From Hyphomonadaceae bacterium (GTDB lineage: Bacteria; Pseudomonadota; Alphaproteobacteria; Caulobacterales; Aquidulcibacteraceae), in contig JAHBYF010000008.1 in the NCBI GenBank assembly GCA_019636095.1, positions 41,886 through 105,885 of the forward strand: 64,000 bases of DNA, in the 5' to 3' direction. Below the pieces are notes generated by a model. That model saw only the letters and a program-made list of their open reading frames with translations, ran no database searches and had not been told where the DNA came from. Below, piece after piece: positions 3,474 to 47,297 of this stretch; position 1 is the first letter of the stretch; each line of letters opens with the position of its first letter. Made by a program: the position numbers and the translations under genes.

Positions 3474-3501
3474 TTGTCCCGCGCCCAGCCCGCGACCCCG
3501 A

Positions 3502-3516: not shown

Positions 3517-3522
3517 AGCCGC

Positions 3523-3562
3523 TAACTATGATAAAAGTGCTATAAAACAATATGCTAGAAGA
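3523..3562. promoter_or_regulatory. AT-rich patch, possible IHF bending site
   Basis: ctaactatgataaaagtgctataaaacaatatgctagaag is the only AT-rich stretch in a GC-rich spacer. It sits between the fliK sigma-54 promoter and the 3612-3630 palindrome. Confidence 0.3.
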
Positions 3563-3611
3563 TGGCGCTGGACCGGTTGCGCCTCGCCGGACGGCAATTT
3601 CAGCCGCCTCA

Positions 3612-3630
3612 CCAGGCAGGTTCTGCCGGG
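3612..3630. promoter_or_regulatory. ftr-like 19-bp palindrome (candidate FlbD/NtrC-type enhancer site)
   Basis: CCAGGC-AGGTTCT-GCCGGG, the same CCNGGC-N7-GCCGGG design as the two sites at 3775-3814. It lies ~100 bp upstream of the minus-strand promoter. Confidence 0.5.
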
Positions 3631-3640
3631 CGATTAACCT

Positions 3641-3655
3641 TGGCCCCGAGCTTGC
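3641..3655 (+). promoter_or_regulatory. Sigma-54 type -24/-12 promoter for flgK-flgL
   Basis: TGGCCC-CGAGC-TTGC on the plus strand with correct GG/GC spacing, ~170 nt upstream of the flgK ATG. Confidence 0.6.
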
Positions 3656-3774
3656 GTGGTGAATGCGCGACGCATTCTGCGCGAGCCCTTTGGTTCGCGT
3701 CGGAAGTAGGGGAGAAAGCGTGTTGTTTCATACGCTTAGATTCACTTCGCGCGTGTTCTGCGCGCTCTTCCGCG

Positions 3775-3814
3775 CCCGGCAGATTTCGCCGGGCGCCGGG
3801 CGCCATTTGCCGGG
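3775..3814. promoter_or_regulatory. Two tandem ftr-like 19-bp palindromes
   Basis: CCCGGC-AGATTTC-GCCGGG (3775-3793) and CCGGGC-GCCATTT-GCCGGG (3796-3814), just upstream of the flgK start codon. Confidence 0.5.
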
Positions 3815-3823
3815 GGCGCACGC

Positions 3824-19941: not shown

Positions 19942-20045
19942 TTCGGCGATGGCCGGCCCTAGCGGGCGCGACATCGCCAGCGGCAGGAATAGAGCGACTA
20001 GGCCGGTCGTGAATATGGCGATCAGCGCGACATTGGCCCAGTCCG
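19942..20045 (+). repeat. R repeat copy (3' half well conserved, 5' half diverged)
   Basis: 19987-20045 gaatagagcgactaggccggtcgtgaatatggcgatcagcgcgacattggcccagtcc aligns with 29527-29584 at about 75% by hand count. Confidence 0.55.
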
Positions 20046-25447: not shown

Positions 25448-28390
25448 ATGAGTTTCGGAAAAAAAGAGACCACTCGCGGTGCTGCACAACGTAAGTCCCT
25501 GTTGATTTGGCGTGATCGGCGTTTGGGTAGCGGCGGCGTGGCGTAGCACTCGTGGCAACGCCGGCGAACACACACTTGCAAGGCAAGCAAAGATAGTTAA
25601 CACGCCACGGGCACGCGCCTTGTGCGTCAAGACTTCGAAGGATCAGCCCGATCGGTCGGCGCTGAGCAGCTCGAACCGACGGCGACCGACGACGAAATCG
25701 TTGCTCAACGAACTGCCGCAGATCATTCCAGGCAACACCCGCACCTCGAACAACGCGGGTGGCTTCGACTATGCGACGGTCGACCTTCGCGGCTTAGGCC
25801 CGGGCCGTACGCTCGTTCTGGTCAACGGCGAACGCGTTCCGGTCAGCTCGACCGGCGGCGCAGTCGACCTCAACACCATCCCGGCCTCGCTGATTTCGCG
25901 CGTCGAAGTCGTGACCGGCGGCGCCTCGGCGGTGTACGGTTCTGACGCTCTTGCTGGCGTCGTGAACTTCGTTCTGAAGGACGATTACGAAGGTGGGGAA
26001 ATCACCGCCACCTACGGTGCGGAACTCGAAACCGGCAACGTCGCCGAATTCGAAATCAACGGCCTCGTTGGCGGCAACTTCGCCAACGGTCGCGGCAACA
26101 TGACGGCGTATGCGTCGTACTATAACCGCCAAGGCGTTTTCCAAAGCGAGTACGACTATTCACGCGTGTCGCAAGCGCTCTGCTATGATGGCCAGTTCGA
26201 CGCTTCCCGCGGCGGCTACCACGTCTTCCCGTGCGACGAGCGTGATGAGGCAATTGCGAACGGTGCGGGCGGCGCGTTCTTCGGCGGCGGCTCGGCCACC
26301 CCACCATGGGGCTGGATCGCCAACAACCCCGGCAACCCGTTCACCGGCTTGGCGGCTGCGGAAACGCTTGTTGGCAACACCAACTTTAACGCCGGCAACA
26401 CCGATACGAACTGCGATGCGGGTGGCGCCTACAACACTGGCAACTTGTCGTTCAACGACGCTGGTCAGCTGACGCCTCGCAACGCGGCGCAGTACTGCGG
26501 CATCCCGGATCGCTCGATCGGTTCGTCGCGTTACAACTATGCGCCGGACAATTATCTGGTCATCCCGGGCGAGCGTATCGCTCTAACCACCAGCGATATT
26601 ACGACATCATTGTGGATAATGTCGATTGAGCCTTGAAGATGAACGCCACACCAACAGCCGGACGCCCTCCAGCTGGCGCCGACGCCGATGACCGGCATCA
26701 ACGTGGTGTTGAACCCGGTGAACTCGGCGTACATCCAGGCTAATCACGCTGACCCTGAAGGTGTCCAACCTGGCGTCGTTCACGCTCAACCGCGTGACCA
26801 TTTGAAGTTGGCGCTCGTATCGGTCAATGAGCAACAACCTCTTCTTCCCGGCAAGCTTGACGGCACCTCGGCGACAACTCAGACGCGCACCGGTTTGACA
26901 CCGCTTCTGGCGGCTGCGCGTCTAACACCTGTGCGGAAAACATACTGTCTTCCAGCGGCGTCCAACAGGGCCTCGCGGGCTGCGCTGACGCCGCCGGCAA
27001 TCCGCTCTGAGCCTGGCGCGCCAGGCTGCCGCGCAAACGGCAGGCGGCTCATCCGGCACACTCGATAAGAGAGCAGCATGGCGAGTCATTCGCGTGAACA
27101 CCTTCAACGACACGATCGTCACCCAAAGAGAAAGCGAATTGCGGCGTCCGCGGCGATCGAATTGCCGGCGCTTCCAGCCGGTGATGACTGGTGCCTGGTT
27201 TCGAATAAGGATACGTTCTCGATCGCGCCAACGATAACGAGCAGCGTACGGGTAAGATCTGCGGCTTCAACGCGGTGCAGGACCGCGAGGGTCAGATCGA
27301 CGTACGAACTGTACACCGAAGCCGCACCCGCTGGCCGGATGCGCCGTTCGCCACTACCTTGGTCTTGAAGGCTTCAGCCGGTCGAACTATTCTCTCGATT
27401 GAAGACGTCGACTCTGCCAAGATCGGCGGCGAATGGGCCCCGACTGAGGTTGCTTTCCGCGATACGAATGGCGCTGGATCTGCGCGCTGAACGCAGCTCG
27501 AAGTGAAACGAGCAGCGACCAGGGCTTCTGCTCCTTTCGCTGACCTGGGCGCAGCGCCAACGCTGCCAATTGCAGCGGCGCTTGTACCGGCGGCGGTCAC
27601 TGTTAGCCTGACCGGCAGGCCAACACCAGGTTCAGACGTTCGCGTTCGGTAACCCGAACCTGGGGCCTGAATCGGCCGAGTCGTTGACCTACGGCGCGGT
27701 CTTCCAACCCGACTGGTTCCCGGTGGCGACGCCACGGTCGATTATTACCACATTGAGGTGTCTGATGTTATCGCATCGGTGGGTGCGCAGTTCTTCCTGA
27801 CGGACTGCTACCAAAACCTCACCGCCGCCAGCTGCGCACGGATCACTCGTGACGCGGCCACCGGGCAGGTGCTCTCGGTCGACACGACCCGCTCTAATCA
27901 GGCTTCGCTTGAAACCGAAGGAGTGGACATCCAGGTTGAATGGTCGGTGCCAATCGGCCCAGGCCAACTCACAATCAACGAGCTCTACTCGATCATCGAC
28001 TCGTACCAGTTCAACGGCGTCGAATTCGCCGGATCAACTAGTGCGGTGATCGGCGGTACGCGCCCGGACTACAAGTCGGTCCTCTCAGTGACGTACAATG
28101 TCGGTGACTGGACTTTGTTTGGCCGCTACACCTACGTGCCTTCCATGTATGCGGCGGGGGTTTGTGCTGCATATGCGTGGTGCGACGACTCACCGGATGC
28201 CAGCTATGTCGATCTGTCGGCGCGCTGGAACATCACCGACTCCTTCTCGCTCACGGCGAACGTCGACAACATCTTCGACGATTATCCGCCGCAAACGGCC
28301 GAAGGTACGTTCAGCCAAGCCAACACCGACCCGCAAGTCTATCGCGTGCTCGGTCGTACGTTCGCAATCTCGGGCCGTTATCGGTTCTAA
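25448..28390 (+). pseudogene. TonB-dependent receptor, heavily decayed (multiple frameshifts and stops)
   Basis: Plug motifs RGLGPGRTLVLVNGERVPV...VEVVTGGASAVYGSDALAGVVNFVLKDDYEG (25512-26636). Barrel pieces in other frames include KIGGEWAPTEVAFRD and FGNPNLGPESAESLTYGAVFQPDW. The C-terminal strand reads ...RVLGRTFAISGRYRF (27758-28390). At least 5 frame changes are needed to join them. Confidence 0.8.
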
Positions 28391-28416
28391 GAGAGCGACA
28401 AGCTTTGGAGACTAAT

Positions 28417-28449
28417 GGCGGCGGACTTCAATGTCCGCCGCCTTTTTTT
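28417..28449 (+). terminator. Rho-independent terminator
   Basis: GGCGGCGGAC-ttcaat-GTCCGCCGCC followed by TTTTTTT, 27 nt after the receptor stop codon. Confidence 0.75.
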
Positions 28450-28487
28450 GAGTCCATTTCGATCGTCCGCCCACCTTCGGTGCTTGA

Positions 28488-28924
28488 ATGTTCGAGCTCC
28501 ACCTCTGGCGAATGGTCAATGACGCCCCCAACATCATTGGGAGGCGATACACTTCCTCGAGGACGAGAAAGAGTCTTGGCGTGAGGACGCTTGGCTTGGG
28601 GCCATGCCTCAACGGCTTCGCGAGAAACTGAGCCAAGCATATGACCAGACTGGTCTTCGGTTCAAAACTCTCACGTTGCGCAGCACGTTCGGTGGTACAA
28701 TCGTAATTGCGGCATTCGCTCAAAATCATCCGATGTCCGAAGGCATCGAACGTAGATTCCTTGAGGTGGTGGCGGCTCTGGCACCAAGCAGTTATGGGGT
28801 GATCTACACCCTCAATACCGACACGGAAGTGCCACGCGGCGAGTTCAACGTGCTCGAACTTGCTAATGGCAAAGTTGTGGAATCACGCGAATTGCTCGTC
28901 CAGCCACCCGACAAATTGCCATAG
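28488..28924 (+). pseudogene. Small cytoplasmic protein split by one frameshift (possibly Imm7-like immunity protein; tentative)
   Basis: ATG 28488 gives MFELHLWRMVNDA.... The frame changes near the C5 run at 28525-28529 and continues ...HHWEAIHFLEDEKESWREDAWLGAMPQRL... into track ORF 28604-28924 (APSSYGVIYTLNTDTE). The N-terminus recalls the MFEYHGW start of Imm7 proteins (memory only). Local GC is lower. Confidence 0.4.
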
Positions 28925-28937
28925 CCGGATGTCCGCA

Positions 28938-29040
28938 ATCGGCGAGAACACGCCGTTGTTGCATGCGCTAAGCCACTGTCCGCCATGGAGCGGGTAGGTC
29001 AGTCGCGAAAATTCGGGCTATGACGCTGGCTGGCCCATTC
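28938..29040 (+). repeat. R repeat copy (full length)
   Basis: atcggcgagaacacgccgttgttgcatgcgctaagccactgtccgccatggagcgggtaggtcagtcgcgaaaattcgggctatgacgctggctggcccattc. About 72% identical to 29483-29584 over 105 hand-aligned columns. Confidence 0.85.
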
Positions 29041-29043
29041 CAG

Positions 29044-29436
29044 TCATCGAAACAGAATGGTCACTCGCACCTCATCGGCTTGTCTCGGAGACGCTACCTG
29101 TCCGACTTGAATCAGAGTGTCAGGAAACCCTTGAACGACCATGACGCGTCGGACTTCCAGCCCTTTGCCTGGGTCATAGCTGGCGATCACCGCCATCAGA
29201 ACGTTGCAGGCGCGCGCGAGGTCAAGATTGGTGGTCAAGGAGTCGAGCGCGCTCGCGTCCAAATTCGTGCTCCCATGCTCAAAGTGAACGAGAAACTCCT
29301 GCGTCGCGCAGGGTGGTGGCCAAGGCGGCTCGACGATGGGCGGCGGAGCCGAGTCCTGTCTGAATGCAACGTTATCGAGCGCGCACCCGGCTAGGAGCAG
29401 AGCCAAGAGAACAGAGAATTGGGCGGTGAACGTCAT
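29044..29436 (-). CDS. Small lipoprotein, unknown function
   Basis: MTFTAQFSVLLALLLAGC lipobox from ATG 29436. The track start at 29493 lies inside the R copy. Confidence 0.6.
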   Translation of the reverse strand: MTFTAQFSVLLALLLAGCALDNVAFRQDSAPPPIVEPPWPPPCATQEFLVHFEHGSTNLDASALDSLTTNLDLARACNVLMAVIASYDPGKGLEVRRVMVVQGFPDTLIQVGQVASPRQADEVRVTILFR

Positions 29437-29482
29437 AGGAGTTCGACTGTATTCAAGGTCGCGATGATTGCGAGTGGCGTTT

Positions 29483-29584
29483 ATCGGCCACAACGCGCCA
29501 TTGCTGCGCGGCTAAGCCACTGACTAGAATGGAGCGAGTAGGCCGGTCGCTGAAATTCGCGCTATAGCCTAGCTTGGCCCATTC
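29483..29584 (+). repeat. R repeat copy (full length)
   Basis: atcggccacaacgcgccattgctgcgcggctaagccactgactagaatggagcgagtaggccggtcgctgaaattcgcgctatagcctagcttggcccattc. Confidence 0.85.
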
Positions 29585-29755
29585 GTGCCCGACGCCCTGA
29601 TCGCGGGAGAGACTTGAGACAGCCAAGCTCAAGCAATTCCTGTTTGCCGACGGCCCCGGCGCTCGCTGCCCTGGCTGGCCACGACTTCGCTCTGGTGTGG
29701 CTTAGGGTAGGTCCCCGGAACCCGAGAAATTATCGGCTCGCCGCGCCGCGAATCC

Positions 29756-30670
29756 TTATTGATAGCCATCCCGCCGCCAGATTTCGGCCAATCGTTCCGA
29801 ACCCATCAGGATTTCGGGATTATCCTTGCGGAGGGCGATGCGCCAACCATCGAACGCCTCGTAATTCTCGTCAACGTGGTTGGGCTCACCGTACCTTGAA
29901 ATCAACGCCGCGCGCAGACGATTGATATCTGATGGACCAAACAGAACCCACATTTGCTCAAGCTGACCGTCGCCAAATACGAACTCGAGTTTTCGGGGAT
30001 AACCTCCGATCTCGACGCCGTAGCAATCGAGTTGCTGCTGTATGGTGGGGGTCGTATCGAGCCAGATGTCCTCAATGGTTTGAATCTGCATGAGGTCGCA
30101 GACTCCCTCAAGGCTGGCCTCGATGTTCGACAACGCCGCGCCGAAAATGATCTGCGCCGGCATTGTGAAGGGATCGCTGGGCGCGACTGGGTGGTCATCG
30201 GTCCAGGCCGGATTTACCCAGGACAGCGCAATTGAAGCGAGCGCCGGAGTCGCCACTATCCAGGCTTGCCTGGTCCTTCGGTTGAGTAGAATTTGTTGCG
30301 GCATGAAGACTTCGTATTCAGCAATTGTAGTTGCTGGCGCAGTATCTGGCGCTATGGCAGAGGGCTCGCCATGGGTCTCGATCATGATCAGGGACTCATC
30401 TGCAAAAGTGAAAACGGCATCGCCGCCACTGCGTCCGTTGGCCAGCGTGAGGTTCCGACAGCGTAGGTGTACCTCGCTGTTCGAAGCGAACGGAAAGCGC
30501 GTATTTAAGACCGCAATACGCGTAACCGTGCCACACGCAGCGTCGACAAGAGGTCGAGCGGCAACCTCGCTCAGACCGAGCTCAATGCCCCTGATTGGGG
30601 TCGATTGTGCGAAGGCCGCGCTCGGCAGAGCGAGGGCGCCGAAAGCAGCAGCCAGCAGAAAATTGCGCAT
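29756..30670 (-). CDS. Exported hypothetical protein
   Basis: Signal peptide MRNFLLAAAFGALALPSAAFAQ; 304 aa. Confidence 0.65.
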   Translation of the reverse strand: MRNFLLAAAFGALALPSAAFAQSTPIRGIELGLSEVAARPLVDAACGTVTRIAVLNTRFPFASNSEVHLRCRNLTLANGRSGGDAVFTFADESLIMIETHGEPSAIAPDTAPATTIAEYEVFMPQQILLNRRTRQAWIVATPALASIALSWVNPAWTDDHPVAPSDPFTMPAQIIFGAALSNIEASLEGVCDLMQIQTIEDIWLDTTPTIQQQLDCYGVEIGGYPRKLEFVFGDGQLEQMWVLFGPSDINRLRAALISRYGEPNHVDENYEAFDGWRIALRKDNPEILMGSERLAEIWRRDGYQ

Positions 30671-30845
30671 CGGAAATCCCCAAGAGATTGTTTCTGCGAT
30701 TGGGATGCGATCGCGCCGCAGTTTGGATGCATGCGCAGCAATGACGCATTACGACGCCTTTGCGACGAAGCGTGGGGCCGATCTCACACGGCGACGTCCG
30801 GCGAACGTCTGTCATTCCTGCAGGTAGGGCGCGGCCGGCAGCTTT

Positions 30846-30898
30846 GGAGGGTGTAGGTCGGTCGCCGGATTTGTCGCGATGGCCTACGCTGGCCCATT
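30846..30898 (+). repeat. R repeat copy (3' half; 5' half weak)
   Basis: ggagggtgtaggtcggtcgccggatttgtcgcgatggcctacgctggcccatt aligns with the ggagcgggtaggtcagtcgc...ctggcccatt part of 28938-29040. Confidence 0.65.
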
Positions 30899-30964
30899 GA
30901 GACACTTTGAATCGGCATTATTGTGGCACCACAACGCGATCTTCGCTCGGGCTGACAACTGCCA

Positions 30965-31520
30965 ATGTCAAATTCGGACTGTCCTGTCCCCAGGGTTGTG
31001 GCGGAACATCTAAGAAGTTGTAATTTCGCGCCGCCGTTCCGCTCGATCAAAGACGACGACATCGGGCCGCTTTGGCTGATCCAATTGGGCGACGATGTTC
31101 AATCGAGCGGGTCTAACTGGCGCGAGAACCATCTACCAAACTTGGTTGAATGGGCGGGAGTCGTGCGCAGCCCAGGTTCGCCAGACTGCCTGCTCACGAT
31201 TGCATGCGAGGACAGTGAGTACTCAGCGTCGTTGGGCAGCCGCTATCTGCCCCACGCACACTTGGAGCTGGCCCTCAACAGCGACGTACGGCGCAAGTTG
31301 AAAGAGATTATGGCCGCTTGGCCCGAGCTCTGGCGCGCGGCCTACGATGCGTTCGTCAACCCTGCCGCCGCCCTCGTCAGTGAAGGCACTCTCCGACTTC
31401 CGAGTGGAAAATTTGCATGTCGATGGCGAAGACGGAACCATACTGATCATCGGCCAAGTAGCGGGGCATCGACTGGAGTGGGAGATATCAAAAGGCCTTG
31501 CACTCGAATTCCGGGAGTGA
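30965..31520 (+). pseudogene. Hypothetical protein with a probable frameshift near 31400
   Basis: Track ORF 30965-31531 ends in an implausible Arg/His-rich tail. From about 31405 another frame reads ENLHVDGEDGTILIIGQVAGHRLEWEISKGLALEFRE and stops at 31518-31520. Lower-GC patch. Confidence 0.4.
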
Positions 31521-31530
31521 TGGTGTCTTA

Positions 31531-31615
31531 GACACGAGCCGTTTTGCACGCTGAACCAAGGACGACCGGGATGGCGTTTCAGTCGGGCGCGCAGAGACGC
31601 CAGCGTTGGTGTGCT
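31531..31615 (+). repeat. Degenerate R repeat copy (tentative)
   Basis: gacacgagccgttttgcacgctgaaccaaggacgaccgggatgg...cagcgttggtgtgc aligns by eye, with indels, to gacaacacgccattgctgca.gcgctaagcca.ctgaccgcaatgg...tagcttggccc. Confidence 0.4.
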
Positions 31616-31653
31616 GACGCGTCCCGACAGCGTACCTCTCTGCGGTCGCCTGG

Positions 31654-32685
31654 CTAACCGCCGCCCAAGGCGCTGAGCACGACATCGCTGCGGCCAAGCG
31701 TATAGAGTTCAGCTGTGCGGAGTTTGGCTTGGTAGGGATCATTCATTCCCCAGGCCGCAGCTAGACGCTCAGCATCCGAGTAGGTGTGACCCGTATCAGT
31801 CCACTCGCATGTGTGTCCGGCGTTTCGCGCGTGCTGGAGGATCGCGGGCACATTCTGTCCGAGTCCGTTGAGGATCTTCCAGCCGACAGTCGCCTTAGCT
31901 TCTCCGATGCCCTGGCCCCAAAACGCCCCGAGTAACTTTGCGTCGCAGTAGACATATCCGGATTGGAAGTATGTCGCGAACTCGTCGCCTGGAACTTGAA
32001 CATCTCGCCGTGTCGAAGTCGGTAGGTTGGTGTTGGTCACCTGCGTATCGATCGCGGTCACGTCGTTGATCGGCGGCGTTGTCGTTGTCTCGCCGTCAGC
32101 CGGCGTAATAGATGGTGGGGTCAGAAATCCCGATTGCCAGGCATAGTAGCCGCCCGCTCCAAGCGCGGCGACGGCGGCGACCCCAAGCAATGGCCCCGCC
32201 AACTGACGTCCGCCGCTCCTCACCTCGCGCGAAGCGGCGGGCGGAGGCGGTGCATGAGAGGGTGTTGTCAGAGGTCTTGGCGCACCGCCGGGTGCGCGGC
32301 CGACGAAATGCTGCACCGCTGACAGCACTCCTTCCCATTCGGAGTCGCTCGTGTCGCCGCTCCATCCGACGAGTCGTGCGGCCTCAATCTGTCGGAAGCC
32401 GTAGGGTATTTCGACGTCGTCGATCAGTAGAGGCAGCAGGACATTGCGCTTCTTGCCCTCGTCGGCCTCGTCAAGCACCCATTGTGCATTTGCCGACAGC
32501 GTCGACCACACAACGATGACGCACTTGGCCGACTGAAGCGCCGCGCCGATGACTTCGCGATACGTGCGTCCAGGTGGAATGCGATGGTCCCACCACACAT
32601 CATAGCCCGCATTTGCGAGCGCCCGTGCGATCGGCTCAACGCGACGGACATCCTCCTTCTTGTAGCTGATGAATACGTCCGTCAT
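31654..32685 (-). CDS. TIR-domain protein with one TM helix and a C-terminal extracytoplasmic domain
   Basis: MTDVFISYKKEDVRRVEPIARALANAGYDVWWDHRIPPGRTY...CVIVVWSTLSANAQWVLDEADEG (TIR_2-like, conserved Glu present). Pro-rich linker. TM helix LAGPLLGVAAVAALGAGGYYAW. About 150-aa C-terminal domain of unknown fold. GGGAGG lies 5 nt before the ATG. Confidence 0.8.
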   Translation of the reverse strand: MTDVFISYKKEDVRRVEPIARALANAGYDVWWDHRIPPGRTYREVIGAALQSAKCVIVVWSTLSANAQWVLDEADEGKKRNVLLPLLIDDVEIPYGFRQIEAARLVGWSGDTSDSEWEGVLSAVQHFVGRAPGGAPRPLTTPSHAPPPPAASREVRSGGRQLAGPLLGVAAVAALGAGGYYAWQSGFLTPPSITPADGETTTTPPINDVTAIDTQVTNTNLPTSTRRDVQVPGDEFATYFQSGYVYCDAKLLGAFWGQGIGEAKATVGWKILNGLGQNVPAILQHARNAGHTCEWTDTGHTYSDAERLAAAWGMNDPYQAKLRTAELYTLGRSDVVLSALGGG

Positions 32686-32773
32686 CGGTCCCTCCCGCAG
32701 ACGAGCGTATTAGCACCTACACGCTAACTCAACGCCTATTGGTCGAGCTGCAGGTTGTAACAACCGCTATGCT

Positions 32774-33823
32774 TCACGATGTGGCGCGTAGCGCGGCGAG
32801 CAGATCTGACAACGAGTCGCATTCAGCGAGCTGACGCGCCTGGGGCCCAGCGCAGGCGCCCAATAGGGCCTCGAACAAGGCGGCCGCTTCGATGATCGGC
32901 GCGGCCGTGAGATGCGTCGGCAGGATACGCACCTCGAACGTGTGCTTGGTCTGCGTACCGAGCGCCACGTTGAGCAGATTGTAGTCGCAGAACTTGCTGA
33001 GCCCGACCTTTCTCAGCGCTGCTTGTGCATCTCGCCAGCGCAATGCGCGAAACTGTTGGCTCTTGGTGAGCTGCGGCAGTGCCTCGGGCCACGATCCGAG
33101 CCTCACGCAATTGGGATTGGCGCCGAACATCGCCTTTAGCGCATCGCCGTGCCGCCACAGCACGTCCACCAGAGTCGCGATTGTCGAAGCGGACTGCAGC
33201 GCTGTCGCGTCGAAGTGAAGATGCGTCGCGCCTTCGATTGGAGCCGCAAATCCGAGCGCGCGCGCGTCCGTTAGTAGCTCCTCCAAAACCTTTGCGTGGT
33301 CGCGCTCAATTGGTGCGGTGACAGTCTCGCACGGCCGCTCGCGCTCGCCAGGCAATGGCGCCGCGATCGCGACAGAGCGATCCTCGTCATCGCGGACGCG
33401 AACCATTCCGGCGTTGGTTTGTGGCGTTGTTGCAAAGAGCGCCGCTAGCGGATTGAGCACCGTTTCCAGCGGTGCGGCTGGGTCGCAGTGCTGGCAAACC
33501 AAACGGAGAATGCGTGCATCGTCGGCGACGATCCGGTACCACCCATCTGCGGGGCTTGCTTCGCGATCGAGATCACGTTGGAGCGTGAGGTCATCGACGA
33601 ACGACGCAACAGGCTTGTCTCCCTCGCTAACTTGGAAGCCAAGGGTAAGGTTCTCGAAGATTGGAACGTTGGACGCTTTGCTGGGCTCCGCTTGCTGATG
33701 GAAGCGGCGGTGAACCTTTCCGCCGATGCGTTGCGCCACGCGCGCGGCGAGATCAGCGCGGCTGACCCCACGGGGCGCAACAAGCTCGACCTCGAACCCG
33801 ATCTTCCAGGTAAGCACCCGCAT
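32774..33823 (-). CDS. Amidoligase-family (glutamine-synthetase-like) enzyme, putative
   Basis: From ATG 33823 (AGGAG upstream). MRVLTWKIGFEVELVAPRG, WYRIVADDARI, CETVTAPIE and IEGATHLHFD fit the GxExEf / W.v..D.S / E.vSP / G.HvH pattern I recall for Amidoligase_2. The track start at 34129 is an upstream artefact. Confidence 0.6.
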   Translation of the reverse strand: MRVLTWKIGFEVELVAPRGVSRADLAARVAQRIGGKVHRRFHQQAEPSKASNVPIFENLTLGFQVSEGDKPVASFVDDLTLQRDLDREASPADGWYRIVADDARILRLVCQHCDPAAPLETVLNPLAALFATTPQTNAGMVRVRDDEDRSVAIAAPLPGERERPCETVTAPIERDHAKVLEELLTDARALGFAAPIEGATHLHFDATALQSASTIATLVDVLWRHGDALKAMFGANPNCVRLGSWPEALPQLTKSQQFRALRWRDAQAALRKVGLSKFCDYNLLNVALGTQTKHTFEVRILPTHLTAAPIIEAAALFEALLGACAGPQARQLAECDSLSDLLAALRATS

Positions 33824-33856
33824 CTCCGCTCTCCTGGCCCAACACTTCAGCAGACA

Positions 33857-33988
33857 TGCAATGGTGCGGCTCGCGAGCCAAGGCCGAATGAGTGACGCGC
33901 TGATATCGGGGCTAGTCGGAGGAGGAAGGTCACCCTCGCGAAGTGGATTGCGGGAACGCCGCTCGCACCACTGCGCCCAAGCTGGCCC
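33857..33988 (+). repeat. Degenerate, expanded R repeat copy (tentative)
   Basis: gcaatggtgcggctcgcgagccaaggccgaatgagtgacg aligns with gccattgctgcgcggctaagccactgactagaatggagcgag. aggtcaccctcgcgaagtggattgcggg aligns with aggtcagtcgcgaaaattcgggc. The copy ends in aagctggccc. Confidence 0.45.
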
Positions 33989-34180
33989 GCTAGCTCTTCG
34001 CGGCCCCGTTAGGGAGCGCTTCGAAGTCTGCCGATGCTGCGCCCCAGTCATCGTCTGGTCACTATTCGACGCACTGGCGGCTTTCACTGGCGTCGTGACG
34101 ACAGGGCTGCTCAGCGGATTGTGTCTCAACGGTTGCGGGGCGAGTGTCGCCTTGTTAGCGTTTTGGAAGGGGAGATCGAC

Positions 34181-35941
34181 ATGATCAGTAAGCTGGCCGC
34201 TCGGCTTGGCGCCATCGGCGCGATTGCCGCGTTAGCGCTAATTCCTTCCAGTATGGCGCAAACGCCAACTTGCACGGGCGAAGCGCTCTCCGTCCACTTC
34301 GGCGAGATGTGCCTGGTGCATAACGATCTGCCACCGATCACCGAGGAAGATTACGGTGTAGTGCGTCTGCGCTTCCGCCCACCGGAGGACCTCAACGATG
34401 TAATTCCGTTGAGGGCCATTCGTGGCTCTTGGTTGGAGCGTCTGGGGCAGCGCGTCGGCGATCAACAAGTGAACTCTGCAGTCGTGCTGCTTGAAGTGCG
34501 CGCGAGCGGTCCAGGTCTGCAGCAAGTGGTTGGGCAGGACGGCGCCAATATGGGTGTGCCGTTAGCGCTGGTTCCGCTCGCCGTCTACAGTTTCGAAAAC
34601 CGAAACGGCGTCAAGTTCAACTCAGTACAAGACTTCGCGGATCGCGTGGTCGGTCCCCGCGTGCTGATTCGCCAGGATCAGACCATTCGCGTTCGCGTAA
34701 AGGTGGCGTTCAGTCACGAGAATCCTGCATCACTCGTTTCCTCTCTGCGCCCGTTCGTGGAGGCAGCGGCCGGCTTCGGAGGGAGTGGTTGGGCCGTGAG
34801 CGCAGTGAGGAACGATGGGCTCATGCAAAGCCTCAACAGCATCGAAGGCATGCTTCGTTCTGTCAACGACGTGAACGGCGAAAGCACTTCATGGGTCGAT
34901 CTGAATTATGAGCGTGGTGCTAACCAGCTTAACTACGCGCTTTCGTTCGACGTGCGGCAAGGGCGCAGGAGCGTCGAGCCGCGGCAGTTAGGAAATATCA
35001 TGCTCACGCTTGAGCGGCGTCCCTCGCTTTTTACGACCGAATCGCTGCCCGGTGAAGGCCGCGGTCGCGCCAATCCCGATTACGGCACGCGCGGAATGTG
35101 GGACGATGTTGCAAGCGGTCGAATATGGAGTGCGATGATTGCGCCTGACGTCAGTGCCGAGCGGTACGTCAATCAGGAACCGCTGGTGGGCGCCGTGTTG
35201 CGGCGCTTCCAAAGCGCCTCGACGACATTGCCGGACTTCGAGGAATCTTGCCGGCAGCTGCGTCAAGTGCTGGGCAATTTCAGCTTGTCGGCGGCAGATC
35301 GCGAAGCGATTTTGTGGGCGGCTTATGTGCGCGGCGGCACCCGTCAAGCCCATGAGTTCCGGCGCTCGGAATGCATCAGCAATTCGAGCAGACGCTGGCA
35401 GATGACTGATTTGCGCCTGCCCGCCGCTGGCGACCCGCCACCGCGGCTCCCCACAGAGCAGGAGGTGGACGAGTGGCTGGTGGTTCTCGCTGCCCCGGCG
35501 CTACTTCATCAAAATCCAGTCGAGAGAACCATTATGCTGAACAACTTGTTTAGGCAGATGATCGTTCTCAACGCGGCGCCAGGAACTTTGTTCGATGAAC
35601 CGATGGTCAACGCTGAAATTGATCGCAGCGTTTTGATCGCTACGCTGAAACCAATGCGAAACGTTGGTTGCCGCTTCAGATTGGGATCTGGCGCTCAGCG
35701 CGAAATGCCTCGCTTCAGTGTGTTGGCGCGCATGCCCGATGACAACAAGTTGGTGGTACTGACGATTGATTACGGTGGACGTGCGAGTGGCGCGTCTCGC
35801 GTGGAGGTCCAAGGTCTTGGCATCGCCGAGCCGAGCGATGCCGACTGGGCCGCATTGGAGGCCACGCCCGGCCTGCCGTCCCGTTGTCATCGCGCAAATA
35901 TTGAGTATGCGCCTTCCAATCCGCCCAACGCGAACCAATGA
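34181..35941 (+). CDS. Exported hypothetical protein (586 aa)
   Basis: ATG 34181 after GGGGAG; signal peptide MISKLAARLGAIGAIAALALIPSSMAQ. Confidence 0.65.
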   Translation: MISKLAARLGAIGAIAALALIPSSMAQTPTCTGEALSVHFGEMCLVHNDLPPITEEDYGVVRLRFRPPEDLNDVIPLRAIRGSWLERLGQRVGDQQVNSAVVLLEVRASGPGLQQVVGQDGANMGVPLALVPLAVYSFENRNGVKFNSVQDFADRVVGPRVLIRQDQTIRVRVKVAFSHENPASLVSSLRPFVEAAAGFGGSGWAVSAVRNDGLMQSLNSIEGMLRSVNDVNGESTSWVDLNYERGANQLNYALSFDVRQGRRSVEPRQLGNIMLTLERRPSLFTTESLPGEGRGRANPDYGTRGMWDDVASGRIWSAMIAPDVSAERYVNQEPLVGAVLRRFQSASTTLPDFEESCRQLRQVLGNFSLSAADREAILWAAYVRGGTRQAHEFRRSECISNSSRRWQMTDLRLPAAGDPPPRLPTEQEVDEWLVVLAAPALLHQNPVERTIMLNNLFRQMIVLNAAPGTLFDEPMVNAEIDRSVLIATLKPMRNVGCRFRLGSGAQREMPRFSVLARMPDDNKLVVLTIDYGGRASGASRVEVQGLGIAEPSDADWAALEATPGLPSRCHRANIEYAPSNPPNANQ

Positions 35942-35962
35942 GCCACCGCCTGTGAAGCGTTG

Positions 35963-36090
35963 TCGACGAGAACGCCTGCGCGATAGCAAAGGCTGAGTTG
36001 GATCAATGTGCTCGGAGCGTGAATGCGCGAGCGAGGTTCTGAAGGATCAATCAAGGTCGAGACCACGGTGGAAATTCGCGCCTGAGTAAG
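35963..36090 (+). repeat. Degenerate, expanded R repeat copy (tentative)
   Basis: tcgacgagaac matches tcggcgagaac of the 28938 copy at 10/11. ggaaattcgcgc matches tgaaattcgcgc of the 29483 copy at 11/12. Both lie in the right order. Confidence 0.4.
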
Positions 36091-36100
36091 ATCTTGTTGG

Positions 36101-36529
36101 TTGGAGAGTGTAGTGAAGCATAAGCTGTTCTTGTTGGGCGCGGTTCTTGCCCTCGTGGCGTGCAGCGCCTCGACGCCGCATGAGCTGGCGGGGCGGTGGA
36201 ATGTGCAGCAGATTGCCGGCGCCCCCTTGGGCGAGGATGTCGACATTTGGATCGAATTCGATGGGACCAGCGAGGCGGTGCATGGGTTCACCGGCTGCAA
36301 CGATTTCACAACGACTGCGTCCGTCTTCGGAACAAACGTCGCTTTTGGGCAGCCGGAGGAGGCCGCCGACGCGTGCGCAACCCTGGCCGCTGAGGTCGAT
36401 GAAGCGCGTTTCCTGCATGTATTGCCAGCTGTGCAGCGCTATGTACGCCACGGCCAGTCACTAGAACTGCTGCAGGCGGTGCAAGGTAGCGAGGCATTGA
36501 TCCGGTTGCGCCGAGACGAGCCAAACTAG
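36101..36529 (+). CDS. META-domain (HslJ-like) lipoprotein
   Basis: LFLLGAVLALVACSAS lipobox. WNVQQIAGAPL...VHGFTGCNDFTTTASVFG...FLHVLPAVQRYVRHGQSLELL is the META domain pattern. Confidence 0.75.
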   Translation: MESVVKHKLFLLGAVLALVACSASTPHELAGRWNVQQIAGAPLGEDVDIWIEFDGTSEAVHGFTGCNDFTTTASVFGTNVAFGQPEEAADACATLAAEVDEARFLHVLPAVQRYVRHGQSLELLQAVQGSEALIRLRRDEPN

Positions 36530-36600
36530 ATGGAGCGACCGTGGAGCAGGAACTAATAGTCGCTGAAGAGTTTGCGGCATCTCGGGTCCAGGCAGCCTAA
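36494..36600 (+). repeat. R repeat copy overlapping the 3' end of the META gene
   Basis: gccaaactagatggagcga aligns with gccactgactagaatggagcga, and tagtcgctgaagagtttgcggc aligns with ggtcgctgaaattcgcgc. It contains exact 9-mers atggagcga and gtcgctgaa. Confidence 0.5.
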
Positions 36601-36629
36601 GGCGTCTCAGACGAGTATCAGCTCCAGGA

Positions 36630-37532
36630 GTGAGCGTGAAAGATCCATACGACATCCTCGGAGTTTCGCGCTCAGCGTCGGCCGATGACATTCGTAAGGC
36701 CTACAGGAAGTCGGCCAAACAATCGCATCCAGACCTCAATCCGGGCGATAAGGATGCGGAGAGCCGTTTCAAAGAGGCCTCAGCCGCCTACGATCTATTA
36801 TCGGATTCTGAAAAGAGAAGGCGCTTTGACGCCGGAGAGATCGACGCGCAAGGCGCTGAACGACAGCGCGAACACTATTATCGCGACTTTGCGGGCGGCG
36901 CGAACGCCGATCCACGCTATTACACGGCGTCAGGGTTCGCGGATTTCGGCGATGCTGACGATGTCCTCGCAGAATTGTTTGCGCGCGCCGGACGGCGTCG
37001 ACGGGGCGGCGATCTGCATTTTCGCCTGCGTGTGAATTTCCTTGATGCTGTGAACGGAGGCAAGGAGCGTGTCACTCTGCCGGATGGGCGAACGGTGGAC
37101 ATTACAATCCCGCCCGGCGCCGAAGAAGGACAAGTTCTGCGGCTCAGCGGCCAAGGAGAGGCAGCTCCTCAACAAGGGGAGGCGGGCGATGCGCTGATTG
37201 AATTGTCAGTTGCAGCTCATCCGCTGTTCGAGCGCCGTGGCCATGACATCGTGCTCGAGTTGCCGATCACGCTGACGGAGGCGGTTGCTGGCGCAAAGGT
37301 CAAGACCCCGACTATTCACGGCGCGGTAATGCTCGCTGTGCCCAAGAACTCGAGTAGTGGCGCAGTGCTGCGTCTCAGGGGCAAAGGCGTTCGCCGGAGC
37401 GATGGCAGTTTCGGCGACCAACTCGTCAAGCTCAAACTGGTTTTGCCACCGACACCTGATGCCGAACTCGAAGCCTTTGCCAACAGCTGGAGCGGCAGGG
37501 CCGACTATCAACCGCGCAAGGATTGGCCATGA
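36630..37532 (+). CDS. cbpA: DnaJ-class co-chaperone, CbpA-like
   Basis: [36 protein letters not shown] (J domain with HPD) plus DnaJ C-terminal substrate-binding repeats. No Zn-finger region, as in CbpA. Confidence 0.85.
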
Positions 37533-41003: not shown

Positions 41004-41106
41004 CTTTTTTCCTTTTTGAACAACCCACTCAGCTTTCCATCAGCAATTCATCAGACCTCGATTGTTGTCAACTTGGCCCGTTTTCACGCGTGCTTGCTCG
41101 CCGACA

Positions 41107-42141
41107 ATGGCCAGTGGAGGTTTTTCGTTGAAATTTCTGTTGATTGCACTCGGGGCTGCGCTGTCTGCGTTCTCCGGACAAGCGTCTGCGCAGGATTATC
41201 AAAGCCCGACGATTGGCGGGCCGGGCGGCGAACCTTTCACCATGCGCTGCGCACAAGGTGATTTTCTCGTTGGCCTTCGCGCCCGTTCGGGAGATTGGGT
41301 CGATGCGATCGCGCCTCTGTGCGCACGCTGGGACGAGAGGCGGCAGAGGTTTTTGGCGCCGGGCATTGGTCCCGTGCGGGGCGGAAACGGCGGCGGACTC
41401 GTTGAAATTCGTTGCAATGAGATCTCGGCCCTGAAATCGTTGGTGGTTGAGCACGCGCCCAATCGCTACCGCAACGTGGCGCTGATCGTGCCGGCCTGTG
41501 CGTCTGGACGTGACCCTACGCGCACAACCGGTCGCCTCGGGGCGGCTCAGTTCGGCACCTCGATCGCGGATCGACGTGATCGCGAAGCTGAACCCGGCAT
41601 TGGGTCGACGACGAGCACCTTCTACGATGCGGACCGGATGCCGCACTGCAATGGAAGCGACCTTGCGGTCGGCATTTTTGGCGGGGCCGGGAACTATGTC
41701 GATCGGATTGGTCTGATCTGCGCTCCACCACCTCGCACTACCGCAGCGGCGACACGTCGTTTGCCGCCACCTTCTGATCTCGCGAACATGGGTCGCGGCG
41801 CAACACCCGCTCCATCTCGCCGGCGGGCCGAGGTCAGCGCCACCCCTGGCATTGCACCGGGAGAGCCAAACGGGCGGGATTGCCGCACCGGTTTTGTTTG
41901 GCGCGAAGCGCGCCCGGGCGATGTCGTATGCGTGACGCCAGAATCCCGCACGTTGGTTCGGCACGAGAATGCTTCCGCAACAGCACGCGTAAGTCCAGGC
42001 GGCGCCTACGGTCCACATACGTGCATCGCGGGGTTTGTGTGGCGCGAGGCCTTCGACGGAGACGTCGTCTGCGTCACGCCTGAACGACGCAGCCAAGTGC
42101 GCGAAGAAAACGCCACCGCCGTGACACGCGTTGCAGGATAG
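41107..42141 (+). CDS. Exported protein: jacalin-like lectin region plus two C-terminal CxxGFVWREA modules
   Basis: Signal peptide from ATG 41107. GGPGGEPF...LVGLRARSGDWVDAIAPLC and VGIFGGAGNYVDRIGLIC (jacalin-like GGxGG / G..vd.i pattern). Then CRTGFVWREARPGDVVCVTPESR...CIAGFVWREAFDGDVVCVTPERR. Confidence 0.6.
   Translation: MASGGFSLKFLLIALGAALSAFSGQASAQDYQSPTIGGPGGEPFTMRCAQGDFLVGLRARSGDWVDAIAPLCARWDERRQRFLAPGIGPVRGGNGGGLVEIRCNEISALKSLVVEHAPNRYRNVALIVPACASGRDPTRTTGRLGAAQFGTSIADRRDREAEPGIGSTTSTFYDADRMPHCNGSDLAVGIFGGAGNYVDRIGLICAPPPRTTAAATRRLPPPSDLANMGRGATPAPSRRRAEVSATPGIAPGEPNGRDCRTGFVWREARPGDVVCVTPESRTLVRHENASATARVSPGGAYGPHTCIAGFVWREAFDGDVVCVTPERRSQVREENATAVTRVAG
41881..42130 (+). repeat. 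Duplicated coding module, copy 1 (pairs with 43319-43568)
   Basis: The first ~68 nt differ at only about 5 positions from 43319-43386; the rest is about 70-75% identical by eye. Confidence 0.7.
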
Positions 42142-42298
42142 CCTGCTGCTCCAAATCCATCGACGAGACCGTTCCATGCAGTCAAAGAAGTGTTTCTCGG
42201 ACTCCGCCTGCAATCGTGAGGCGAGGTTTGCAAACGCCCAAACGCGCGCAGCGTTCACACATTGGGGATTGAGGTTAGCGGCAGACATTGCTCCGCGA

Positions 42299-43576
42299 AT
42301 GCGGATCGTGACTATCGCGCTTGCGCTGTTGTCCTGCATCTCAATTGCGCCACGCGCGGAGGCGCGGCCTGGTACACCGAGGAATCTGATCGTGAGTGAC
42401 TGCAGCGGCGATTCCTCAATCGGGAGGGGGCCGCGCTTCTCTGGGCCGCCAATCCTCTGTCTCGACTTTGAGAACACGGCGCCCGAGAGCGTCCGCTTCG
42501 AATTCATGGCATTTGCGAACGGCGCCGTTATCCCCGTCACAACCTTCGACGCGTTTTGTCGCAATCGCAATGCGGGCGCGTGCACGGCAAGCGGCGCATT
42601 CGTTGCCTGGGGATATTCGCATTATACAGAACGAGACTCGTCAAACCCTGTCTGGGAGCGCGAGGCGATCTATCTCGTCGGCGCTGACTTCGACACGCAA
42701 TATTGCTTCATGGTACGCACGCGAGATGAGAGCGACACCGTTTCGTTGTTGTGGTCCAATCGCGCGTGTCTAGTCACGCGCGGACGACCGCTGCCGCCAA
42801 CGGAGCCTTCGATTAGCGTTCGAACCTCGCAGCGCGGGGACCGCGTCATGGTCTCATGGGGAGGCGGGGGCCGCGAGGTGGGAAATTATGAACTTGAGGC
42901 CCGAACATCGCGTCCCATAGAGTTTGCATTGATTCCAGAAAATGTGCGCCGGGCGAACGAGTTTCATCGATTGGGCGCCGATTCATTCACGCTTGACGTG
43001 CCGTGGGCGGTCGCGCTCGACATGCATGATGAGGCGTATCTTTATCGCGTTTGCGCGGTTAACGTCGCCGGCAGAAGTTGCTCGGCGTGGGTGTCCAGTC
43101 TCGGCGACGCGCCTCCCCGCAGCGTCACGCAGGCTGCTGTGCGTGAGGTCCAGTCAAATGTTGCGAACGCCGTACCGCCTCCGCTCAGTGCGGAATCACA
43201 ATCGCATCCGCTTGGCGCACGAAGGGAAGCGGACGGTCCTTCTCGGCCATCGCGCGCTAGCGCCGAAGCGACTGCTGATGTGACGGTGTCTTCGCGGGCT
43301 GGGGATCAATCACCACGATGCCGCACTGGCTTTGTTTGGCGCGAAGCGCGCCCGGACGATGTCGTATGTGTGACGCCCGAATCCCGTGCGCAGGTGCGGC
43401 AGGAGAACGCGACCGCTGGGTCTCGCGTTAGCCCCGGCGGGCCCTATGGGCCGAACACATGCGTGTCAGGATTTGTTTGGCGTGAGGCGTTCGACGGGGA
43501 TGTTGTTTGCGTTACGCCGGCGCGGCGAAACAACGTACGCGACGAAAACCGAACCGCCGCATCTCGGACGAACTAA
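42299..43576 (+). CDS. Exported protein: Ig/FN3-like region plus two C-terminal CxxGFVWREA modules
   Basis: Signal peptide MRIVTIALALLSCISIAPRAEA from ATG 42299. C-terminal CRTGFVWREARPDDVVCVTPESR...CVSGFVWREAFDGDVVCVTPARR is paralogous to the preceding gene. Confidence 0.6.
   Translation: MRIVTIALALLSCISIAPRAEARPGTPRNLIVSDCSGDSSIGRGPRFSGPPILCLDFENTAPESVRFEFMAFANGAVIPVTTFDAFCRNRNAGACTASGAFVAWGYSHYTERDSSNPVWEREAIYLVGADFDTQYCFMVRTRDESDTVSLLWSNRACLVTRGRPLPPTEPSISVRTSQRGDRVMVSWGGGGREVGNYELEARTSRPIEFALIPENVRRANEFHRLGADSFTLDVPWAVALDMHDEAYLYRVCAVNVAGRSCSAWVSSLGDAPPRSVTQAAVREVQSNVANAVPPPLSAESQSHPLGARREADGPSRPSRASAEATADVTVSSRAGDQSPRCRTGFVWREARPDDVVCVTPESRAQVRQENATAGSRVSPGGPYGPNTCVSGFVWREAFDGDVVCVTPARRNNVRDENRTAASRTN
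43319..43568 (+). repeat. Duplicated coding module, copy 2
   Basis: See 41881-42130. Confidence 0.7.
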
Positions 43577-45466: not shown

Positions 45467-45519
45467 CGTCCCAGCTAAGGGGCTTTGGCCATCGAAGCAA
45501 AGCGACGCAATGACCGACT

Positions 45520-45618
45520 TCGGCGACAACACGCCATTGCTGCACGGCGCTAAGCCACTCACCGCAATCGATAGAGTAGGTCAGTCGCCCAAATCGTCGC
45601 GACGTGCTACGATGGCCC
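45520..45618 (+). repeat. R repeat copy (subfamily B)
   Basis: tcggcgacaacacgccattgctgcacggcgctaagccactcaccgcaatcgatagagtaggtcagtcgcccaaatcgtcgcgacgtgctacgatggccc. Confidence 0.85.
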
Positions 45619-45682
45619 TGAAAAGCCTTACATCGTCTCCGCACGACTTGTGTATCCATGCACTCTGCCGCTCACTGCATCC

Positions 45683-46198: not shown

Positions 46199-46223
46199 AA
46201 CGCCAGCGCCTCTGCGTCCATAA

Positions 46224-46321
46224 ACGACGGCAACACGACGTTGCTGCATGCGCTAAGCGATTGACCGCAACCGATAGAGTAGGTCGCTCACTCGCGGAGT
46301 GCGCCTATCCGGCAACGGCCC
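46224..46321 (+). repeat. R repeat copy (subfamily B)
   Basis: acgacggcaacacgacgttgctgcatgcgctaagcgattgaccgcaaccgatagagtaggtcgc.... About 85% identical to 45520-45618 over the first ~75 nt by hand count. Ends in ...ccggcaacggccc. Confidence 0.85.
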
Positions 46322-47082: not shown

Positions 47083-47297
47083 AGTGGTCTCCTGCGGAGT
47101 TTTCGCTGCACTTGCGACCTTAGCTGATGGCCTTGAGACTTCAAAGCGTCGCGAGCGACACCGGAGGTTGGTTGAGCGGTTGTCGAGGGCGCGGCGCAAA
47201 GGCCTTTCCCGATGGACAGAAAGCGACTGGCGAGAATATCTTGGCGTCGGTTTCGCAAGAGGCGAACCTGCATGTTCGTGAGCGGGCCGAGGTCGAC

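Follow-up and report, generated by a model that had tools for sequence, protein, structure and literature searches.

The 64,000-nucleotide window analysed here, from a Hyphomonadaceae bacterium, carries on its minus strand an amidoligase gene followed after 88 nt by a gene for a TIR-domain protein. Sequence comparison of loci across genomes showed that this pairing arose secondarily, by fusion of a domain to an older system, which links the amidoligase with an exported repeat protein bearing a domain that we call C-dom, and that in several phyla the C-dom family is the only neighbour conserved beside this amidoligase subfamily. The best explanation of the data as a whole, to which we assign a probability of about 0.7, is an older amidoligase/C-dom system in which the product of the enzyme is tied to C-dom and to which TIR was fused secondarily. 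The focus shifts from an apparent amidoligase and TIR defence pair to a much broader and tighter link, that of an Amidoligase_2 subfamily with a helical-repeat protein that is exported.

We sampled 80 amidoligase loci from Alphaproteobacteria, Cyanobacteria, Gammaproteobacteria and delta-type, spirochaete and Acidobacteria lineages. C-dom adjoined the amidoligase at 72 of the 80 by tblastn and at 73 by a repeat-unit HMM; it lay downstream on the same strand in 36 cases, upstream on the same strand in 31 and divergently in six, all within about 1.2 kb. Clustering of the neighbours at these loci revealed no third conserved gene near the amidoligase, C-dom being the only one. The reverse look-up found a PF12224 gene 22-54 nt away for five of six C-dom proteins, several amid housekeeping genes, with one exception. 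Besides the window, TIR was found near the amidoligase at only three of the 80 loci (L001, L003 and L026), 76 of the 80 being without it, and in one of 150 C-dom family representatives. Since the C-dom pairing is broad and TIR is restricted to four loci, the conserved system consists of the amidoligase and the exported repeat protein, and it is apparently new to description, as C-dom falls in none of the families of Pfam or NCBIfam and is without a fold neighbour in PDB or BFVD. Other recurring neighbours reflect lineage-specific synteny, e.g., a protein of about 261 aa upstream in Erythrobacteraceae.

The amidoligase gene (32774..33823, minus strand) encodes a cytoplasmic protein of 349 aa without a signal peptide. 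Its family, which the earlier note had proposed from the letters, was borne out by a search with the Pfam profile PF12224, which aligned residues 5-318 to 2-242 of its 245 positions with E=2.4e-14 and 54.3 bits (cutoff 22), and a 100% identical database protein carries the annotation 'amidoligase family protein [Hyphomonadaceae bacterium]'. PF12224 was present in 120 of 120 homologues among the matches listed. Judged from the 61 invariant columns in an alignment of 63 homologues, the window enzyme is intact. Among the residues that do not vary in the 63 sequences, and that the window protein also has, are E11, E13, H201, H203, D205, E297 and R299; going by family knowledge, E11/E13, H201/H203/D205 and E297/R299 would be the catalytic residues of a carboxylate-amine ligase. 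The AF2 model reached a pLDDT of 95.9. Its Foldseek search against PDB returned nothing at E<0.01, the best glutamine-synthetase (GS) match being 4bax_A (E=0.11, TM 0.25), and the family profile gave no match among PDB sequences; the glutamine-synthetase/GCL-like fold is assigned from the Pfam/Iyer 2009 family definition. Neither PHROG nor PADLOC contained a match. The subfamily was found in 0 of 50,697 phages and, among 72,556 plasmid records, in one partial match; several of its loci sit amid housekeeping genes.

C-dom occupies residues 235-341 of the TIR protein (31663..31983, minus strand), as supported by tblastn and HMM matches, alignments and an AF2 model. It is an all-helical domain of about 105 aa composed of two repeat units of about 50 aa with the signature Y-x-Y-C-D-A-x6-W ... 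A-K-x3-G. A Cys pair is conserved in the alignments, and Asp and Lys are invariant or nearly so in every unit, residues that may be purely structural. The model is compact, with seven helices and a pLDDT of 94.2; Foldseek found no fold neighbour for it in PDB or BFVD, and the sequence belonged to no family in Pfam, NCBIfam or PHROG. A word-indexed search with C-dom alone gave one protein, and an exhaustive HMMER search and a query with an alignment were needed to uncover the family, which comprises at least 521 clusters at 50% identity; the description of the C-terminal domain as unique in the earlier note does not stand. Pfam LPD26 (PF18842) matched only a Ponticaulis-type six-unit protein (E=2e-7); a scan of 150 C-dom representatives gave one match, a scan of 40 modules likewise one (E=0.12), and the window C-dom none, so that this lead did not reproduce among members. 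In other genomes C-dom proteins have one to six repeat units, almost always behind a signal peptide: a crude hydrophobic-stretch test flagged 110 of 151 representatives, signal-peptide-like N-termini are visible in the translations, and one member gave a faint TAT-signal match. Nearly everywhere outside the TIR-bearing loci, the partner of the amidoligase is predicted to be a small exported protein headed by a signal peptide of Sec/Tat type.

Only in the window, L001, L003 and L026 is the signal peptide replaced by a TIR-linker-TM cassette. The window protein (343 aa; 31654..32685, minus strand) begins with a TIR domain (residues 1-130; 32296..32685, minus strand) supported by TIR_2, PDB alignments and codon comparison. 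TIR_2 (PF13676) matched residues 4-108 with E=3.5e-20 and 73.1 bits (cutoff 28), confirming the TIR protein that had been proposed 88 nt downstream on the same strand. In the PDB alignments, W68 and E72 (nt 32470-32472) fall on the W...E motif that PdTIR (3h16) and AbTir (7uwg, 8g83) share, which is kept in all cassette homologues; the Glu aligned with E72 is the catalytic E208 of AbTir. The domain differs from that of L001 by 33 synonymous and 3 non-synonymous codons, and TIR is 80-84% identical between loci, whereas the amidoligases of those loci are only 56-61% identical. The codon differences indicate that the TIR domain is under strong purifying selection; together with W68/E72 and the identity across loci, they predict that it is likely functional. 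A cytoplasmic Pro-rich linker (residues 131-161; 32203..32295, minus strand; APGGAPRPLTTPSHAPPPPAASREVRSGGRQ) leads to a predicted signal-anchor TM helix (residues 162-183; 32137..32202, minus strand) and a Thr/Pro-rich, predicted periplasmic spacer (residues 184-234; 31984..32136, minus strand) that precedes C-dom. The hydropathy-based TM prediction is borderline, with a KD19 of 1.55 in the window and 1.58-1.88 in L001, L003 and L026; Arg residues flank the segment on its N-terminal side, and it is conserved throughout the cassette, including in a further locus, L085.

L085 carries the same cassette (TIR 83% identical, same linker and TM) on another ectodomain, which is rich in Cys, and no amidoligase lies near it. 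L001 has a second TIR-TM gene 0.5 kb away, and the 893-aa protein of L001 joins the cassette to yet another ectodomain. The second TIR protein of the window (51650-52687, plus strand) has a TIR domain 37-38% identical, a TM at residues 149-167 and an unrelated C-terminus; the common plan of N-terminal TIR, Pro-rich linker and predicted TM had been recognized correctly. Across the paralogues, TIR is constant and the ectodomain variable. In an NJ tree, the four TIR loci share one amidoligase clade with the non-TIR loci L002 and L058, a grouping that does not decide between one and several origins of the fusion. TIR was added recently, in a few marine genomes of Hyphomonadaceae type. Since the cassette is rare and also occurs on an unrelated ectodomain without an amidoligase, the pairing of amidoligase and TIR reads as a secondary fusion. 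As to the co-occurrence that the earlier note proposed to count, the adjacency recurs in L001, L003 and L026, and TIR accompanies the amidoligase at only three of 80 loci. The profile search supports the amidoligase and the adjacency recurs in these three other genomes, so that neither outcome named in the earlier note as refuting its reading was obtained. A literature search found no paper on an amidoligase paired with TIR, in agreement with the earlier remark that none was known.

Upstream of the amidoligase lies a leader (33824..33885, minus strand) with a Shine-Dalgarno AGGAGA and a stretch, CTTGGCTCGC..GCATGTC, partly conserved with L001 in the junction comparison; it is a candidate promoter only, because a sigma-70 consensus scan of the locus gave no promoter match. 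The 88-nt intergenic spacer (32686..32773, minus strand) holds a GGGAGG Shine-Dalgarno 6 nt 5' of the ATG of the TIR gene, and a terminator scan found no terminator-like site on its minus strand. An Rfam scan of the locus returned no useful match; a single sub-threshold match to the COG2908 RNA within the amidoligase CDS was put down to chance. The only DNA that the window shares with L001 is a block of 2.18 kb at 87.5% identity, with unrelated flanks, and inspection of the block junctions in the two sequences revealed no inverted repeats or target-site duplications. The genomic context of the pair differs between the window and L001. Candidate copies of a repeat, R, had been proposed to border the pair at 31531-31615 and 33857-33988; an nhmmer profile built from four clear R copies found neither at E<=10, and their pairwise local scores were no better than those of shuffled sequence (z 0.3-2.9; true copies among themselves gave z=24), which ruled them out as borders.

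A mobile unit, as the earlier note had it, fits poorly with borders that lack repeats, a single partial match in 72,556 plasmid records and none in 50,697 phages. It is very improbable that the pair forms a dedicated, R-bounded mobile defence module in which ligase and TIR NADase share a product that may be NAD-derived or amidated. The adjacency conserved in four genomes, the 2.18-kb block as the only DNA common to the window and L001, the retained catalytic-type Glu and the second TIR-TM gene 0.5 kb off at L001 would all suit such a module, yet 76 of 80 amidoligase loci lack TIR while 73 have C-dom, the TIR cassette also occurs without an amidoligase, the borders show neither R copies nor inverted repeats nor target-site duplications, phages have no member of the subfamily and plasmids next to none, and PADLOC gave generic TIR matches only and none for the ligase. 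We reject the dedicated module because of the frequency of C-dom (73/80) against that of TIR (3/80), the cassette of L085 without an amidoligase, the false R borders and the scarcity on plasmids and phages. Rather unlikely, too, is a TIR independent of the amidoligase, the cassette having merely replaced the signal peptide as an anchor and TIR using other partners or acting as a scaffold and not as an NADase. The portability of the cassette, seen in the other ectodomains of L085, the 51650-52687 protein and the 893-aa protein of L001, is in line with this, as is PdTIR (3h16) as best PDB relative, to which, to our knowledge, no defence role has been assigned; very strong purifying selection on TIR within the fusion and retention of the fusion in at least four diverged genomes argue against it.

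Under the preferred reading of an older amidoligase/C-dom system, the amidoligase would form an ATP-dependent amide bond in the cytoplasm, and gene adjacency alone suggests a functional link between its product and the C-dom protein that is exported. The ligase might either modify the C-dom precursor ahead of export or supply C-dom with a ligand, be it an envelope component or a metabolite. As the ligase is cytoplasmic and its partner Sec-exported, any direct modification would have to come before export. By analogy with PafA, which acts on Pup and lysine, and with RimK, which acts on S6, such protein tagging, e.g., an isopeptide or amide on the invariant Asp or Lys before Sec/Tat export, is a tentative possibility. 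It would agree with a strict two-gene module lacking a transporter, peptidase or further biosynthetic gene, with one to six units as in multi-core substrates, with an Asp and Lys (nearly) invariant per unit, with start and stop codons that overlap or lie 22-54 nt apart, suggesting co-translation, and with the faint Tat signal of one member; against this, the C-dom model is compact and confidently folded (pLDDT 94), unlike a disordered tag, the conserved residues are compatible with a structural repeat signature, and six loci are divergently oriented. We also entertain, with similar reserve, that the ligase acts by amidation or ligation on a metabolite or on an envelope precursor, for instance of peptidoglycan or polysaccharide, and that the exported repeat protein binds or senses the product in the periplasm. 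Enzyme and partner occupy different compartments, and all hosts of the amidoligase loci come from Gram-negative (diderm) phyla, both of which fit. Cell-surface modification roles have been proposed for phage amidoligases by comparative genomics (Iyer et al. 2009, as cited in PMC11318856), which points the same way. However, the neighbourhood has no conserved gene for an exporter or a precursor pathway, and C-dom is unlike known peptidoglycan- or ligand-binding folds.

In the TIR-fused form of the amidoligase/C-dom system, C-dom would be the periplasmic ectodomain of an N-in/C-out receptor, whose state would control TIR self-association and NAD+ cleavage in the cytoplasm, in the manner of a Toll-like receptor whose domains stand in the opposite order. 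The most far-reaching version, a so far undescribed cross-phylum envelope system in which covalent maturation by a cytoplasmic GS-type ligase yields the exported repeat protein, with its new fold, and the Hyphomonadaceae-type variant relays a periplasmic cue to a TIR NADase as a Toll-like receptor, we consider distinctly unlikely; if true, the TIR-linker-TM cassette would be a modular output put on different ectodomains. The amidoligase/C-dom pair offers a clean two-gene system in which to learn the role of this class of orphan ATP-dependent ligases. The TIR-fused variants, in which a single lineage attaches the same TIR-linker-TM cassette to different periplasmic domains, provide a natural experiment on whether extracytoplasmic signals can drive bacterial TIR enzymes.

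Canonical neighbours of Amidoligase_2 genes are GAT-like thiol peptidases and AIG2/GGCT cyclotransferases, with phages or conjugative elements as a frequent setting; neither family was present among the clustered neighbours at 80 loci or the Pfam-labelled genes at five further loci, and the partner of the window subfamily is instead an exported repeat protein without a described family. The window enzyme scores above the gathering threshold over nearly the whole Amidoligase_2 profile (Iyer, Abhiman, Burroughs & Aravind 2009, Mol Biosyst 5:1636), and the strand-borne motifs of acidic, His and Arg residues (E11/E13, H201/H203, E297/R299) are invariant in the family, including in the window enzyme. 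No match of this enzyme to PafA or RimK was found by sequence or structure, and where their partners are a disordered tag and a ribosomal protein, that of the window enzyme is a folded domain that is exported. PafA, the GS-fold Pup ligase, and the ATP-grasp RimK are carboxylate-amine ligases acting on proteins. Thoeris ThsB, TIR-SAVED CBASS, short-pAgo TIR-APAZ and retron-TIR showed generic similarity (PADLOC E=1e-9 to 1e-2), with matches confined to the TIR domain and NCBIfam scores far under cutoffs; these anti-phage systems have neither an amidoligase nor a TM-anchored ectodomain. No ThsA, SAVED, pAgo or reverse transcriptase partner was found among the genes examined, and the neighbouring ORFs scanned had no PADLOC match. 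Assignment to Thoeris was rejected on ThsB scores below cutoffs (ThsB E=0.01; ThsB_TIR 17.9 bits, cutoff 21.2) and the lack of a ThsA partner; ThcB4 of type III Thoeris reached 23 bits (cutoff 220). Like AbTir and PdTIR (7uwg/8g83, 3h16), with which it aligns weakly over residues 3-75 (E=6e-5 to 3e-3), the window TIR conserves the W...E motif, and its Glu in a W-x3-E context makes it a candidate NADase; unlike them, it stands N-terminal to a Pro-rich linker, a TM and a periplasmic domain. With Toll-like receptors the window protein shares a one-pass layout of extracytoplasmic domain and cytoplasmic TIR, but their order (ectodomain-TM-TIR) is inverted here and the ectodomain is a helical repeat and not an LRR, an analogy in which homology is limited to TIR.

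Profile searching identified the ORF at 32774-33823 on the minus strand (349 aa from its ATG), a suspected amidoligase, as a member of the Pfam family Amidoligase_2 (PF12224; E=2.4e-14, 54.3 bits against a cutoff of 22, nearly the whole profile covered). An 88-nt spacer, evident from the ORF coordinates, separates it from the TIR gene on the same strand (31654-32685, minus), whose ATG is preceded by GGGAGG; our scan of the minus strand found no terminator-like site between the two genes. The 343-aa TIR protein is made up of a TIR domain (residues 1-130; TIR_2 match at residues 4-108, E=3.5e-20), a Pro-rich linker (131-161), a hydrophobic segment with Arg residues on its N-terminal side (162-183; KD19 hydropathy of 1.55, and 1.58-1.88 in orthologues), a Thr/Pro-rich spacer and a C-terminal domain of ~105 aa (residues ~235-341), here termed C-dom. 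The source genome is a Hyphomonadaceae MAG, and an identical amidoligase in NCBI carries the same organism annotation. A sub-threshold COG2908 RNA candidate (Rfam; 22.7 bits, gathering threshold 58.7, E=0.02) at 33033-33078 on the minus strand falls within the amidoligase coding sequence and was taken as a chance match.

We compared 80 genomic loci encoding amidoligase relatives (48-87% identity) from Alphaproteobacteria, Cyanobacteria, Beggiatoa, Thiolinea, Methylobacter, delta-type bacteria and spirochaetes. The pairing with TIR recurs, but in tblastn with the TIR protein just three loci, L001, L003 and L026, have a TIR domain next to the enzyme, whereas C-dom is the widespread neighbor: at 72 of the 80 loci, an ORF adjoining the amidoligase matches residues ~235-341 (tblastn), and an HMM of its ~52-aa repeat unit (consensus AFFDSGYTYCDAKLLAALWGQSVYEAKLKIGRKITNGNSANVDQALASARAS) detects it in 73, mostly as 2 or 4 units (range 1 to 6) and never more than ~1.2 kb from the amidoligase where both are present. 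On the amidoligase's own strand, C-dom lies downstream in 36 cases and upstream in 31; in the other 6 it is divergent. Clustering of all flanking ORFs in the 80 loci yielded no further conserved neighbor. Reciprocally, five of six C-dom genes looked up in public assemblies have a PF12224 gene 22-54 nt away, one such pair lying between ffh and glycosyltransferase genes of an acidobacterium; the sole exception, protein P0318 (L088, 2501-3046), has no amidoligase within 2.5 kb. At another locus (L090, 2501-5439), an ECF sigma factor gene and one more ORF come after the C-dom and amidoligase genes, with stop and start codons overlapping; in that lineage, this may tie regulation to envelope stress.

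C-dom, which had been thought unique, belongs to a family of at least 521 clusters at 50% identity (exhaustive HMMER search), all of whose members are named hypothetical and only one of whose top 150 carries a TIR domain. The partner proteins have predicted N-terminal signal peptides of the typical kind, with a faint Tat-signal match in one. No Pfam or NCBIfam family covers the C-dom members, apart from an LPD26 (large polyvalent-protein-associated domain 26) match above the gathering threshold (E=2e-7) confined to the six-unit Ponticaulis-type protein (L079/L080), which may reflect distant relationship or chance. The domain comprises two half-repeats with a nearly invariant Y-x-Y-C-D-A, W, A-K, G and a Cys pair; its confident AlphaFold model (pLDDT 94.2) contains seven helices, and Foldseek found no fold neighbor in PDB or BFVD. 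The amidoligase is also confidently modeled (pLDDT 95.9), and in an alignment of 63 homologues 61 columns are invariant, E11/E13, H201/H203/D205 and E297/R299 among them. Neither Foldseek nor profile searches linked it significantly to solved GS-like structures, so its fold assignment rests on the Pfam family definition.

The TIR domain aligns with PdTIR and AbTir, with W68 and E72 matching the W...E motif of both, and the Glu at the E72 position is presumably catalytic, corresponding to AbTir E208. Between the window and L001, the TIR region differs at 33 synonymous and 3 non-synonymous codons, and the amidoligase at 93 and 43, respectively; in L003 and L026 the TIR is 80-84% identical to that of the window and the amidoligases only 56-61%. 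In a metagenome scan, the same TIR-linker-TM cassette (TIR 83% identical, with the common transmembrane end GGGY[YF]AW) appeared in L085 (1386-2726), with no amidoligase nearby and joined to a Cys-rich ectodomain unlike C-dom, with repeated C..GYVWR motifs. In a neighbor-joining tree built from amidoligases, the four loci with a TIR share one clade with the non-TIR loci L002 and L058, which makes the TIR fusion a derived, lineage-restricted one. Some 0.5 kb upstream of its amidoligase module, L001, a related MAG, additionally encodes an 893-aa protein (2758-5439) whose N-terminal TIR shares 46% identity with that of the window; this protein, which also has hydrophobic segments and an extended C-terminal part, points to lineage-specific expansion of TIR-TM proteins. 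The window's other TIR protein (51650-52687) has an equal layout; its TIR is 37-38% identical and its C-terminus unrelated. It directly follows a 1500-aa ORF with only a weak TPR match (47127-51629), and the two may form another operon around the TIR-TM architecture.

The proposal that the pair is one mobile unit delimited by R copies at 31531-31615 and 33857-33988 did not hold. A profile built from true repeat copies matches neither site. Compared pairwise with one another and with true copies, the two sites score as shuffled sequence does, so the unit is not bounded by R copies. The true family, on the plus strand, has ~115-nt copies at 28930-29044, 29476-29588, 45511-45625 and 46216-46294, a partial copy at 30841-30898 and a weak one at 19981-20045. 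The first two flank a small minus-strand ORF (29044-29493) whose N-terminus carries a lipobox-like LLLAGC; no Rfam family matched within 28000-37000, and REP/MITE-like elements or a small RNA are candidate readings. Elsewhere in the window, a TonB-dependent receptor is seemingly split, with Plug domain and C-terminal barrel in separate ORFs ~1.1 kb apart (25512-26636 and 27758-28390), and may be a pseudogene or frameshift; a 241-nt direct repeat (41881-42121 and 43319-43559, 76% identity) lies within adjacent ORFs (41062-42141 and 42131-43576) that are probably tandem paralogues. The sole stretch shared with L001 is 31646-33824 (87.5% over 2,179 nt), with unrelated flanks, no inverted repeats or duplications seen at the junctions, and a weaker resemblance over ~50 nt upstream, possibly a promoter. 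Searches for the amidoligase subfamily returned no phage homologues, one partial plasmid match and no PHROG or PADLOC match. The module occurs in differing contexts across genomes, yet is not recognizable mobile-element cargo.

Altogether, the analysis shows a conserved pair of amidoligase and exported repeat protein, with the TIR-TM fusion secondary and found in few genomes; the original observation was largely real and its interpretation right in part. The amide-bond chemistry of the ligase would be functionally tied to the exported C-dom protein, which it might modify ahead of export or for which it might make a ligand. In the fused form, a periplasmic C-dom could govern a cytoplasmic TIR NADase. 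Our literature search found no publication on the amidoligase/C-dom pair or, in line with the earlier note, on amidoligase-TIR pairing. What is new is an undescribed partner domain and a portable TIR-TM cassette rather than a dedicated amidoligase-TIR defence module.
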